DNA from: a virus
Taxonomy: Duplodnaviria; Heunggongvirae; Uroviricota; Caudoviricetes
IMG/VR virus record: IMGVR_UViG_2778261297_000008
Strand: one strand, 5' to 3'
DNA: 57,427 nucleotides
The notes beneath the pieces were generated by a model that was not told the DNA's origin, did not search any database, and worked only from the letters and a program-made list of their open reading frames with translations. The position numbers were made by a program, and so were the translations under genes. Every line of letters begins with the position of its first letter. The stretch's first letter is position 1. Below, piece by piece: positions 44,416-45,305 of this stretch.

Positions 44416-44775
44416 ATGTTAACGCCGTTTGGTAAGACAGTAAGAAAAATGCGCATAGACTTGGGGCTTACGCTTAAAAGCATGGCTGAGGCTATGGGCA
44501 TGACCTCGTCTTATCTTTCAGCGATCGAAACTGGTAAAAGGGCGGTCACTAAGCCCGTGCTTGATAGCATCATTAGCTATTTTAATGCGGATGAAAAACA
44601 AAAAGAAAAGCTTATCAGTGCAGCTCGTGACTCTCAGCAGTCAGTAGAGATCAGCTTGTCAGGTAAGAATGGCCACGCTCGTGAAGTCGCAATTGCGTTC
44701 GCTCGTAGTTTTGATGAGTTAAATGAAGAAGACTTCCGTAATTTACGACAGATTTTGAATCGAAAACAGCAGTAG
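44416..44775 (+). CDS. XRE-family HTH transcriptional regulator
   Basis: 119 aa, HTH (LKSMAEAMGMTSSYLSAIETGKR); SD GGAG. Confidence 0.8.
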   Translation: MLTPFGKTVRKMRIDLGLTLKSMAEAMGMTSSYLSAIETGKRAVTKPVLDSIISYFNADEKQKEKLISAARDSQQSVEISLSGKNGHAREVAIAFARSFDELNEEDFRNLRQILNRKQQ

Positions 44776-44783
44776 GAGGCGGC

Positions 44784-45305
44784 TTGAGCGGACAAGATTA
44801 TCGTGTACCTCCGCAGAATCGTGAATCAATACGTTCTATCGTCAGATCTCTGCGGAGCGCATTTGGTATTACTGGGCTTAAATTCCCTGTAATGGAGGTA
44901 ATTGAGTTCGCATTGCCTCAGTTGATCCCGGATTTTGAGTTCCACATTGGTGGTATGAAAGAAATGGGAGAGACGCATGGTCTTACATACCCACAGGAAC
45001 ATTTATTGATTCTGCGCGAAGACATTTACGAAGGCGCTTTGAATGGGGTAGGGCGAGATAGGATGACTGCCGCGCATGAACTGGGTCATCTTCTTATGCA
45101 CAGGAACATCGCATTTGCTCGTTCTGCCCCAGGGGTAAAAATCCGCCCTTTTGAGAGTAGTGAATGGCAAGCTAAATGTTTTAGTGGTGAGTTATTAGTG
45201 CCAGCTATGCATGCCAGTATTTTAAAAGGTATGACGGCTGAGGATGTTGCTGAGGCATGCGGAGTTTCATTAGTGGCAGCGCGTTATCAGCTAGACAAAA
45301 TGTAA
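44784..45305 (+). CDS. ImmA/IrrE-family zinc metallopeptidase (HEXXH)
   Basis: HELGHLLMH motif; TTG start 5 nt after AGGAGG; co-oriented with and 8 bp after the XRE gene. Confidence 0.8.
   Translation: MSGQDYRVPPQNRESIRSIVRSLRSAFGITGLKFPVMEVIEFALPQLIPDFEFHIGGMKEMGETHGLTYPQEHLLILREDIYEGALNGVGRDRMTAAHELGHLLMHRNIAFARSAPGVKIRPFESSEWQAKCFSGELLVPAMHASILKGMTAEDVAEACGVSLVAARYQLDKM

Follow-up and report, generated by a model that had tools for sequence, protein, structure and literature searches.

The window, the whole 57,427-nt stretch of prophage DNA analyzed here, carries three co-directional genes closed by an intrinsic terminator: an XRE-family HTH repressor, an M78 zinc metallopeptidase, and, behind a structured leader, a 49-aa basic protein (Table 1). 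The initial annotation had recognized the first two as an XRE and ImmA/IrrE-type HEXXH metallopeptidase pair. Both open reading frames lie exactly where it had placed them on the plus strand, and profile matches confirm both families, while the conserved partner of the pair, the leader and the 49-aa ORF (45306-45612), falls outside the range it covered (44416-45305).

Table 1. The three-gene cassette and its surroundings, in positions of the window.
Feature	Position	Strand	Basis
Phage integrase	1459-2622		
Prophage CI-type repressor, LexA-like, HTH + Peptidase_S24	6122-6814	-	
CII-like gene	7165-7722		
304-aa ORF, neighbor	42847-43761		
Direct repeat, left copy, 100 nt, dinI 3' flank	43978-44077	.	
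Truncated dinI-like pseudogene abutting the cassette; insertion scar, outside the system	44080-44213	-	RefSeq annotation
Three-gene cassette, promoter to terminator	44246-45647	+	Block common to other prophages
Candidate operator, imperfect palindrome TTAACAGAATTTTGTTGA overlapping the -35	44323-44340	.	Conserved position in relatives
Predicted cassette promoter: -35 TTGATT (44337-44342), 17-nt spacer, -10 TAACTT (44360-44365)	44337-44365	+	Footprint
Inverted repeat AGACCT-N10-AGGTCT, predicted transcript 5' end	44372-44393	+	Sequence
XRE-family HTH repressor, CapH-like, 119 aa, ATG start	44416-44775	+	Pfam and PADLOC profile matches
M78 (ImmA/IrrE-type) zinc metallopeptidase, 173 aa, TTG start	44784-45305	+	Pfam and PADLOC matches
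Structured leader between M78 and the 49-aa gene, ~155 nt	45306-45462	+	Covariation
H1, strong hairpin just past the M78 stop, CCCCTTGC / GCAAGGGG, palindrome TTGGCGCCAA at top	45309-45339	+	
Structured leader RNA, ~120 nt, pseudoknotted	45341-45459	+	Covariation, complementarity, covariance model
Leader helix H2	45345-51 / 45363-69	+	
Leader long-range helix	45374-78 / 45421-25	+	
Leader helix H3	45394-99 / 45409-14	+	
Pseudoknot, H2 loop CCAAGAGG with TCTCTTGG	45355-62 with 45437-44	+	
Gene of the 49-aa basic beta-protein, MGLKSIASKAAPKGFRWVFCRYRKVRGKSKKVLDAHDYGYEAWAFLVRC, conserved third gene	45463-45612	+	phrog_33859, linkage, coding signature
Intrinsic terminator ending the cassette: 8-bp GC-rich stem, then TTTTTTGT	45625-45652	+	Terminator scan
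Direct repeat, right copy, 100 nt	45750-45849	.	
DUF6650 gene, neighbor	46219-46695		
AbiTii gene, neighbor	46797-47717		Profile match, E = 5e-44

The 119-aa protein matches the Pfam families HTH_31 (E = 9e-11) and HTH_3 (E = 2e-10), both above their gathering scores, over an HTH domain at residues 5-63. The PADLOC capH profile spans nearly the whole protein (residues 2-116, E = 3.6e-10) and is the sole profile match to its C-terminal half; sequence matches in the PDB are confined to the HTH part. The 173-aa protein matches Peptidase_M78 (PF06114, COG2856; E = 1.4e-9, 38.2 bits against a gathering cut-off of 22) and PADLOC capP (E = 6e-11). Its HELGH motif occupies residues 98-102 and E127 is the downstream Glu ligand. 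Searches returned 131 peptidase homologues at E ≤ 1e-3, and H98, E99, H102, and E127 are invariant among 25 aligned homologues that are 42-91% identical to the window protein, indicating that the catalytic site is intact. The identification of the pair thus far exceeds what chance would give. The clade also shares a conserved non-catalytic N-terminal motif, MSG..Y.VPP.SR..IR. The peptidase start codon lies 8 nt past the HTH stop, and its ribosome binding site, AGGAGG (44774-44779), sits four bases before the TTG and overlaps the HTH stop codon. The HTH gene is immediately 5' of the M78 gene in 94/118 loci, and the two domains are fused into one protein in four relatives.

The third gene encodes a basic, aromatic-rich protein that matches phrog_33859 (E = 1.5e-26) and whose AF2 model has a pLDDT of 91.5. 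We found no match to it in Pfam, NCBIfam, or PADLOC, and its model matched no known fold. Because the DNA downstream of M78 is so highly conserved, an RNA gene was at first considered for 45463-45612. We rejected this possibility because nucleotide differences concentrate at third codon positions (190/129/714 by position), codon changes are in excess synonymous (571 synonymous vs 238 non-synonymous), and the alternative reading frame is not maintained as an open frame; an RNA interpretation stands only for the leader. DUF2188 and DUF3892 have been reported beside HTH/metallopeptidase pairs, but these families differ from the 49-aa protein. Essentially all of the 233 cluster representatives of the small protein are stand-alone proteins of 40-90 aa. 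Apparent domain fusions were discarded: a 1076-aa match with ‘16 repeats’ is a low-complexity artefact, and a 128-aa match is an M78/small-protein chimera. Identities of the HTH, M78, and small proteins to their relatives are 34/44/83% in Lysobacter, 39/30/78% in Vibrio, and 37/33/73% in Wohlfahrtiimonas. The small protein is thus better conserved than its partners, which argues for a conserved target rather than for a co-evolving partner only.

The interval between the peptidase and the small ORF is itself structured. Hairpin H1 went uncalled in the terminator scan of the window because its U-run is weak, and it is likely a leaky terminator or attenuator. An H1-like hairpin is present in most of 26 folded leaders, its top motif recurring as GGCGCCAACC or its reverse complement; a TTGGCG/TTGCAG hexaloop occurs in 21/97 leaders, on at least 12 different stems. 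Downstream of H1, the helices of the pseudoknotted leader covary across 20 sequences: 84% of cells pair, compared with 37-50% when the partners are slid, and 18/26 pairs within the helices show compensatory changes. Shuffles reached the observed values in 0/500 cases on four of five measures and in 1/500 on the fifth. The 3' arm of the pseudoknot lies just 5' of the Shine-Dalgarno (SD) sequence of the 49-aa gene (AAGGAGG, 45446-52), and complementarity between the H2 region and this pre-SD stretch is higher within loci than between them (59/76 diverse leaders, Wilcoxon p = 7e-9). A covariance model built from enterobacterial-type leaders has one match in the window (E = 2e-27) and finds the equivalent site in ~20 loci, without reaching the alphaproteobacterial type; the breadth of the RNA motif therefore rests on the per-locus complementarity test. 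Among 4227 Rfam families, none matches over the leader at E ≤ 1, and assignment to a known RNA family was rejected, as nearby STnc130 and CssrB matches are weak, below threshold, and outside the leader. We consider the leader a candidate new cis-regulatory RNA. Between H1 and the small ORF, we found no convincing sigma-70 promoter that could serve this ORF, and the terminator behind it is kept in relatives.

Upstream of the repressor gene, we predict a promoter for the cassette from a phylogenetic footprint in which GTTGATTT is invariant and the -10 reads TAACTT, TACATT, or TATATT in four relatives. The imperfect palindrome overlapping its -35 is likely the operator of the HTH protein. At the equivalent position, ~85 nt 5' of the HTH start, relatives have near-perfect palindromes of the form AAATCAACA-N4-6-TGTTGATTT, and TCAAC..GTTGA also occurs in distant loci such as L042, L047, L085, and L137. 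Even with one mismatch allowed, the operator pattern has a single match in the 57-kb window, at the cassette's own promoter, a degenerate pattern for which ~0.7 chance matches would be expected there. An operator common to promoter and leader was rejected, as the promoter palindrome is absent from the leader and the rest of the window. The inverted repeat at the predicted transcript 5' end occurs once in the window, and in relatives the stem is kept with changed sequence (AGACCC..GGGTCT in L002, GCCGAAA..TTTCGGC in L004); it may serve as a stabilizing hairpin or a second operator. SOS control was likewise rejected: the cassette promoter region has no LexA box, and window-wide counts of such boxes are at chance level.

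The three genes are linked well beyond this prophage. The small ORF lies ~140-190 nt downstream of the M78 stop, on the same strand, in at least 34/52 genome loci, and reciprocally, with the small protein as bait, HTH and M78 genes lie upstream in 74/80 viral contigs. This fixed-distance ORF spans Gamma-, Alpha-, and Betaproteobacteria, Clostridia, Synergistota, Chloroflexia, and CPR bacteria. From this linkage, we infer that transcription of the small ORF is coupled to the switch. Other neighbors vary among the 54 genome loci and 80 viral contigs, and no neighbor family other than tyrosine integrases is conserved across the 54 genome loci or the 118 pooled loci. The downstream slot is also interchangeable in content. 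In relatives that lack the small ORF, the same slot holds co-directional multi-ubiquitin/E2 and JAB/E1 genes, or, in other clade members, genes for DUF4417, a ResIII helicase, or a membrane protein. In a few loci, the leader and small ORF occur without the HTH and M78 genes; one such switch-less copy directly follows an AbiLi-like ATPase. We found no description of the three-gene arrangement of HTH, M78, and small ORF in the literature. The repressor/peptidase switch is of a known kind, and its three-part form appears undescribed.

The unit also moves as a block. The nucleotide match that defines its extent (query positions 347-1748) has 89% identity to other E. coli prophages and to phage Phi06_2987, where it sits in other contexts. 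One of these copies (L002), in a different E. coli prophage, is flanked by yejO and an integrase, and none of the cargo genes of the window lies near it. On the left, the cassette abuts a dinI copy that RefSeq, on identical DNA, describes as ‘frameshifted; incomplete; missing N-terminus’, while the dinI at the corresponding position is intact in thousands of E. coli prophages. The two repeats that bracket the cassette are 92% identical, and both match one place in ordinary dinI loci. No tRNA att sites were found adjacent to the cassette in the loci tested.

We favor, at slightly better than even confidence, the reading that 44246-45647 is a self-contained, horizontally mobile, autorepressed cassette whose output is the 49-aa protein and which does not regulate the surrounding cargo. 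Several observations count against it: the small ORF is undetected in about a quarter to a third of M78-clade genome loci, the 49-aa protein lacks hydrophobic character and has no resemblance to known toxins or effectors, and most transcripts may end at H1. A different role had been proposed in the initial annotation, that the pair probably controls the neighboring cargo genes and not lysogeny. Its view that the pair stands apart from the CI/Cro switch of the phage holds, given that the prophage has its own CI-type repressor and CII-like gene, and its broader view of such pairs as switches wired to cargo finds support in the immune-type operons that occupy the downstream slot in clade relatives. 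Control of the adjacent genes in this window, exerted by a CapH/CapP- or ImmR/ImmA-type pair over AbiTii, DUF6650, the 304-aa ORF, or an IteA/IteS-like pair, is nevertheless very unlikely in our judgment. CapH/CapP-like pairs do regulate adjacent immune operons, immune operons adjoin the pair in some relatives, and this prophage arm is rich in defense genes, with AbiTii and an IteA-like AAA ATPase plus S8 peptidase. However, none of the window's neighbors co-occurs with the pair elsewhere, another prophage has the cassette without them, recombination scars and the cassette's own terminator separate it from the cargo, and the candidate operator is found only once in the window. The upstream divergent position, which is the canonical CapH/CapP target, is occupied by the dinI pseudogene.

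The one recurrent neighbor family raises another possibility, that the pair is an ImmR/ImmA-type master immunity and induction switch of a small nested integrative element, a satellite or remnant, controlling its excision rather than cargo. In 36/118 loci, the immediate neighbor of the small ORF is a tyrosine integrase gene, with start offsets whose medians are ~30 and ~75 nt in the two integrase clusters (integrase-adjacent loci include L002, L004, L029, L040, and L087), and ImmR, ImmA, and Int are linked in ICEBs1. ImmR/ImmA of ICEBs1 and phage phi105 of Bacillus subtilis resemble the window pair in having a single-domain ~170-aa peptidase directly after an HTH repressor, and they resemble its clade in residing on a mobile element, often with an integrase near. 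Similarity between ImmA and the window peptidase is at the Pfam family level only. ImmR is the master repressor of its own element's excision and transfer genes, whereas the prophage in the window has a separate S24-type CI and a CII, and other host prophages of the cassette carry their own repressors as well. Furthermore, the adjoining integrases are mostly convergent and not co-transcribed, the constant partner is the small ORF and not an integrase or excisionase, and in the window no integrase adjoins the cassette: the nearest transposase, of IS110 type, is 2.3 kb away, and the phage integrase lies elsewhere (Table 1). We regard a nested-element switch as most improbable; compared with ImmR/ImmA, the window pair looks like a moron-like traveling cassette with a small-protein output.

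Comparison with CapH/CapP, a CBASS-associated repressor and peptidase, helps to delimit what kind of switch this is. As in that system, an XRE HTH repressor adjoins an M78 peptidase with the HExxH...E arrangement; among solved structures, a sequence search with the window peptidase found CapP (7T5T) alone (E = 3e-13), aligned over residues 81-170 only, with H98/E99/H102/E127 aligning with CapP H96/E97/H100/E129. Linkage to 6e-type ubiquitin-like systems, which has been reported for CapH/CapP-like pairs, is also seen in some relatives of the clade. CapH combines its HTH with a C-terminal domain for oligomerization. CapP is a 291-aa protein in which peptidase, HTH-like linker, and C-terminal GAF domains form a groove for ssDNA (Lau et al. 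2022 preprint, 10.1101/2022.04.27.489752; Calloji et al. 2026 preprint); it senses ssDNA via the GAF domain and a cysteine switch, its cleavage of the repressor is stimulated by ssDNA, and about a third of CapP proteins have the cysteine-switch loop. The window peptidase, at 173 aa, stops aligning at about CapP residue 179 and has no GAF domain, and a CapP-type ssDNA groove therefore cannot exist in that form. Its H106-E127 loop is shorter and has no cysteine, and so it has no cysteine switch. While CapH/CapP-like pairs canonically act on an upstream, divergent operon, the partner in the window is downstream and co-directional, and in place of a multi-gene immune operon, the proposed output is a single 49-aa protein whose gene follows a structured leader. 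DdrO/IrrE (PprI) of Deinococcus shares the logic of the proposed switch, with an XRE repressor cleaved by a COG2856/M78 peptidase and target genes derepressed. IrrE, however, has HTH-like and GAF domains and serves a chromosomal DNA-repair regulon, and the DdrO and IrrE genes do not form an operon on a mobile cassette.

The absence of any sensor domain from the peptidase leaves room for the small protein to be an accessory subunit of the switch, serving as sensor or adaptor in the activation or targeting of the GAF-less enzyme, with the targets of the switch lying elsewhere, for instance in other prophages. RapI activates or targets ImmA in this manner, and in CapP and IrrE it is the GAF domain that provides the ssDNA groove; a basic, aromatic-rich protein would suit nucleic acid binding, the three-way linkage is tight, and the N-terminal M78 motif could be a docking site. 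Yet the small ORF, found without the switch in several loci, can function alone, which argues against a mere cofactor role, and unrelated operons fill its slot in relatives. The small protein is far better conserved than the peptidase that it would have to bind, and a hairpin and a translational-control leader set its gene apart, which is unusual for a stoichiometric subunit. We judge the accessory role unlikely, and the 49-aa protein better regarded as the output of the cassette.

Toxin-antitoxin (TA) systems offer the remaining precedent. Under this alternative, the locus would be a type II TA or addiction module that stabilizes the prophage arm, either of the predicted Xre-COG2856 class, in which the peptidase would be the toxin and the HTH protein the antitoxin, or like RosmerTA or PD-lambda-2, with the small protein as toxin. 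Xre-COG2856 pairs have been predicted as TA modules, and a member of the window clade, the HTH-Xre/ZnMP pair on genomic island GI-3 of Brucella abortus (BAB1_0270), is listed as one: its peptidase (180 aa) has 39% identity to the window protein (full length, E = 2e-35) and its HTH protein (118 aa) 28% (full length, E = 1e-15). It has been described as a two-gene ‘type II TA’ system with stress and virulence phenotypes (PMC10538038), a description in which a third gene or leader was not considered; our comparison covers the two proteins only. The Brucella peptidase is deletable and no toxicity has been shown for it (PMC10538038), and overexpressed COG2856 proteins were non-toxic in S. pneumoniae or E. 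coli (PMC4257102). RosmerTA and PD-lambda-2 are small anti-phage modules in which, as in the window, an Xre HTH and an M78 domain occur together with a small or toxin component. PD-lambda-2, from E. coli prophage-like DNA, is a three-gene defense system whose Xre-peptidase fusion is itself toxic, and the HTH-M78 fusions in relatives of the window pair recall this organization. RmrA, the RosmerTA antitoxin, is a single HTH-M78 fusion of ~360-400 aa beside a toxin gene, whereas the window has two separate genes, and the PADLOC RmrA profiles match the HTH protein separately and only ~50 residues around the active site of the peptidase. The partner proteins of those systems, namely RmrT toxins, HigB-like proteins, and P4-antitoxin-like proteins, are unrelated to the 49-aa protein, and their gene order differs. 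The gene order in the window and the strong separate control of the third gene are also unlike a simple two-gene TA module. A TA function is, in our assessment, quite unlikely.

Returning to an autorepressed cassette, we propose a mechanism that follows its order of operator/promoter, CapH-like repressor, M78 peptidase, leaky hairpin, pseudoknotted leader, 49-aa gene, and terminator. At rest, a repressor dimer would occupy the palindrome and hold expression of the entire unit close to zero. The peptidase, once activated by a cue from stress or infection, would cut the repressor in the manner of ImmA-ImmR, CapP-CapH, and IrrE-DdrO, systems in which repressor cleavage by the peptidase is established experimentally. 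Transcription would rise and read through the H1 hairpin, with the leader, placed beside the ribosome binding site, acting as a second, translational gate. The small protein, once made, would target some conserved component of the cell, with a nucleic acid or a core machine as the most likely candidates. Our guess is that it is an effector that arrests growth or acts against phage and is restrained by several layers of repression.

A broader reading, which we offer only tentatively, is that the cassette represents a widespread and so far undescribed minimal system, triggered by stress or infection, in which a GAF-less switch gates a 45-50-aa beta-protein effector through a pseudoknotted leader, and that the effector has a universally conserved bacterial target. 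If so, the small protein would bring about growth arrest or abortive infection, or would modulate the DNA-damage or translation machinery; the cassette would be a portable module of prophages and integrative elements from Proteobacteria to Clostridia; and the leader and the 49-aa protein would represent a new class of cis-regulatory RNA and a new effector family, respectively.

Repressor/M78-peptidase pairs are among the commonest unexplained pairs on mobile elements, where they are annotated as immunity switches, TA pairs, or defense regulators. In one large clade of them, to which the Brucella ‘ZnMP/HTH-Xre TA system’ belongs, the pair proves to be part of a three-part unit whose output slot is fixed. 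This reframes what such pairs do and provides a defined small protein and RNA. It also carries a warning, that a regulator found in a defense island need not regulate its visible neighbors. An effector role for the 49-aa protein would place it among the smallest regulated outputs known for repressor/peptidase switches, and would offer a way to study how prophages link the sensing of stress to host physiology independently of the SOS/CI circuit.

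By gene content, the window is an E. coli lambdoid prophage. The initial annotation had placed in it an XRE helix-turn-helix (HTH) gene paired with an ImmA/IrrE-type peptidase gene, separate from the phage's own switch and probably regulating neighbouring cargo. Both ORFs lie exactly as called and the family assignment is correct: each product matches its Pfam family, and the zinc-site residues H98, E99, H102 (in HELGH, residues 98-102) and E127 are invariant in 25 M78 homologues that are 42-91% identical to the one in the window. The pair is also distinct from the separate CI/CII circuit of the prophage. 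Taken by itself it is ordinary, and it forms the first part of a three-gene cassette (44246-45647, plus strand) that runs from promoter to terminator and includes a structured leader and an ORF for a 49-aa protein. By megablast, this whole block, and not the pair alone, is the unit shared with phage Phi06_2987 and other E. coli prophages (89% identity); in another E. coli prophage the block sits between yejO and an integrase without any of the window's neighbour genes.

We retrieved 131 homologues of the peptidase and sought its relatives in one genome per species. Of 52 full-length loci, at least 34 have a small-ORF homologue about 140-190 nt past the peptidase stop on the same strand, in Gamma-, Alpha- and Betaproteobacteria, Clostridia, Synergistota, Chloroflexia and one CPR bacterium. 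Reciprocally, the small protein as bait returned 84 viral contigs, of which 80 were kept; HTH and M78 genes are directly upstream in 74 of these, and contig ends truncate two others. Acinetobacter and Gluconobacter examples from the protein database have the same triplet. In the literature searched we found neither the three-gene arrangement nor its conserved third gene or covarying leader described.

Features of the prophage window, with loci from other contigs (own coordinates) in the last four rows
Feature	Position	Strand	Remarks
Integrase	1459-2622
CI	6122-6814		HTH+S24
J	34637-38035
lom
Tail fibre	38760-41789
Tail-fibre assembly gene	41789-42373
304-aa ORF	42847-43761	minus	larger piece of split phrog_19262 gene
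Direct repeat, 100 nt	43978-44077 and 45750-45849		brackets cassette; copies 92% identical; dinI 3' flank
Truncated dinI pseudogene	44080-44213	minus	adjoins cassette
Candidate operator	44323-40		imperfect palindrome TTAACAGAATTTTGTTGA; overlaps -35
Predicted promoter	44337-42 and 44360-65	plus	-35 TTGATT, -10 TAACTT; footprinting among four relatives
XRE HTH protein	44416-44775	plus	119 aa; HTH_31/HTH_3, E ~1e-10
M78 peptidase	44784-45305	plus	173 aa; Peptidase_M78, E 1.4e-9, above threshold
H1 hairpin	45309-45339	plus	immediately after peptidase stop codon
H2 hairpin	45345-51 / 45363-69	plus
Pseudoknot	45355-62 / 45437-44	plus	purine-rich H2 loop CCAAGAGG with TCTCTTGG; 3' partner directly 5' of Shine-Dalgarno sequence
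Long-range helix	45374-78 / 45421-25	plus	encloses H3
H3 hairpin	45394-99 / 45409-14	plus
Small ORF	45463-45612	plus	49 aa; strong ribosome-binding site, own terminator
DUF6650-like protein	46219-46695		158 aa; convergent with AbiTii gene
AbiTii-domain protein	46797-47717	minus	306 aa; E 5e-44
IS110/ISEsa2 transposase	47890-49167		follows AbiTii/DUF6650 pair (46219-47717)
Leader and small ORF without switch, L140	3469-5150
Same, L160	3702-5144
Same, L086	3394-4132
Same, L161	1578-1715

The third gene, hypothetical in RefSeq, encodes a protein matching PHROG 33859 (E 1.5e-26). This protein is real and under purifying selection: among 32 distinct 49-codon homologues there are 571 synonymous versus 238 non-synonymous codon changes, nucleotide differences by codon position number 190/129/714, and the alternative frame overlapping it is not preserved. 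It is markedly more conserved than its partners, with HTH/M78/small-protein identities to the window of 34/44/83% in Lysobacter, 34/43/72% in Acetomicrobium, 37/33/73% in Wohlfahrtiimonas and 39/30/78% in Vibrio. The family forms 721 clusters at 90% identity and 233 at 50%, and nearly all members are stand-alone proteins of 40-90 aa. P12, G14, R23, L33, A35, G39, W43 and L46 are invariant, and AlphaFold gives a confident small beta-sheet of four strands with a short helix (pLDDT 91.5), for which neither sequence-profile nor fold searches returned an identification. As a less likely reading, the small protein may be a sensor subunit of the switch. Four settings have the leader and small ORF but not the HTH/M78 genes. 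In a phage they come immediately after an AbiLi-like ATPase, and elsewhere they follow another P-loop ATPase; a Babeliales conjugative element has them adjoining TraG/TrwB and an SRAP protein, and in the fourth setting they lie beside phage lysis genes.

The distance between the peptidase gene and the small ORF is preserved across phyla, and the intervening spacer folds strongly. In a 20-sequence alignment of the leader, 84% of cells pair, versus 37-50% with slid partners, compensatory changes occur in 18 of 26 pairs, and shuffles reached the observed values in 0/500 cases on four of five measures and 1/500 on the fifth. The pseudoknot partners are wholly different by lineage (CTAAGAGG/TCTCTTAG, TGGAGCCG/TGGCTCCA, TTGGGATGG/TCATCCCAG, CCGGGAGGA/TCCTCCCGG, GGGGGC/GCCCCC), and their complementarity is greater within than between loci in 59 of 76 non-redundant leaders (Wilcoxon p=7e-9). 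A covariance model matches the window a single time (45341-45459, E 2e-27), with hits at the corresponding position in about 20 loci; there is no Rfam match. In the enterobacterial-type leader, the pyrimidine stretch of the pseudoknot can pair alternatively with the Shine-Dalgarno sequence itself, which suggests a two-state translational gate. The top of H1 is a full palindrome in the window (TTGGCGCCAA, 45317-45326), and relatives carry one half in either orientation, GGCGCCAACC in gamma-type loci and its exact reverse complement GGTTGGCGCC in alpha-type loci, a hint that the motif acts as a DNA-level site and not solely as an RNA hairpin. A TTGGCG/TTGCAG hexaloop occurs in 21 of 97 leaders, on at least 12 unrelated stems. 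The invariant motifs TAACAC (45402-45407) and CAAG (45424-45427) have a promoter-like 17-nt spacing, but CAAGGG is not a sigma-70 -10; they may be sites for a protein, a promoter for an alternative sigma factor, or tertiary contacts.

At the position of the candidate operator, relatives have near-perfect palindromes (AAATCAACA-N4-6-TGTTGATTT), and TCAAC...GTTGA is recognisable at the promoter even in Acinetobacter, Paucimonas and a Rickettsiales MAG. The window holds no second copy of the palindrome, and the cassette promoter has no LexA box. From these sequences, the cassette is likely autorepressed by its own HTH protein. The proposal that the pair regulates adjacent cargo is unsupported for the visible defence genes: the palindrome stands once, neighbouring promoters in the window bear no sequence sign of HTH binding, and neighbours are unconserved. 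Clustering of all flanking ORFs, first in 54 genome loci and later in 118 pooled loci, gave HTH, peptidase and tyrosine integrases as the sole recurrent families. The integrases, mostly convergent, adjoin the small ORF directly in 36 of 118 loci. Where the window has its dinI pseudogene, thousands of E. coli prophages carry an intact copy, so the dinI-flank repeats and truncated dinI indicate that the cassette entered this locus by recombination or insertion, without historical tie to the AbiTii, DUF6650 or 304-aa genes. Two DinI-like genes stand at this locus in at least one E. coli genome (strain 600), and in lambdoid prophages dinI appears to mark a hotspot of recombination through which cargo is exchanged.

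The EC09 chromosome is 100% identical to 43900-45900. At 42502-43761 (minus strand) the two differ: a stop codon splits the phrog_19262 gene into 304-aa and 69-aa ORFs in the window, where it may be a pseudogene, and EC09 has one 410-aa ORF. The cargo arm that carries the cassette also has a candidate divergent ietAS-like two-gene defence system (50129-53613), with an AAA ATPase matching NCBIfam IteA_antiphage (E 1.6e-65, under the equivalog cut-off) followed by an 829-aa S8 subtilase with a weak IteS match. Close to the right end, a NikA-like mobilisation protein (55666-56031) suggests a second mobile element, or its edge, past the arm.

Among known systems, the capH profile matches the HTH protein over its full length and the capP profile matches the peptidase, for which a sequence search found a single solved structure, CapP (7T5T; E 3e-13; just residues 81-170 align). 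The window peptidase lacks the GAF domain and cysteine switch that, with the peptidase domain, form and gate the ssDNA-sensing groove of CapP. CapH/CapP pairs lie upstream of, and divergent from, their operon, whereas the conserved partner here is downstream and co-directional. ImmA is similar to the peptidase in size and simplicity. However, the pair is not the master switch of its element, and an ImmR/ImmA-type element switch is an unlikely reading. A toxin-antitoxin (TA) module is also less likely. The Brucella abortus GI-3 'ZnMP/HTH-Xre TA system' truly belongs to the clade (peptidase 39%, E 2e-35; HTH 28%, E 1e-15; full lengths), studied solely as a two-gene pair (PMC10538038), and pneumococcal COG2856 proteins were not toxic when tested (PMC4257102). 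PD-lambda-2 and RosmerTA have fused Xre-peptidase proteins and partners unrelated to those of our cassette. HTH and M78 are fused (~300-325 aa) in several alphaproteobacterial relatives, which links the split clade to the RmrA/PD-lambda-2B fusion type. The M78 N-terminus (residues 1-25) has a clade-specific non-catalytic motif, MSG..Y.VPP.SR..IR....R with P9 invariant, possibly a docking surface for the repressor or small protein.

In clade members without the small ORF, other co-directional genes occupy its slot: DUF4417 (two loci), a ResIII/DEAD helicase (one), a membrane protein (two), and, in one, a multi-ubiquitin/E2 protein with a JAB/E1 protein, the 6e type, whose link to CapH/CapP-like regulators is already known. 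This gene content fits output swapping, with a regulatory front end and an exchangeable output. Together with the AbiLi-adjacent locus, it assigns the small protein the role of output in an immune or stress context. We consider it somewhat more probable than its negation that a repressor/peptidase switch and a pseudoknotted leader control a 49-aa protein acting on a conserved target. The repressor on its palindrome would silence the cassette until a cue activates the GAF-less peptidase, which would cleave the repressor, as established for CapP, ImmA and IrrE. Derepressed transcripts would run through the leaky H1 hairpin, the leader would set translation, and the 49-aa protein would act on its target. 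Such multilayer control, in this context, suggests, as a guess, that the small protein may be a harmful or growth-arresting effector.
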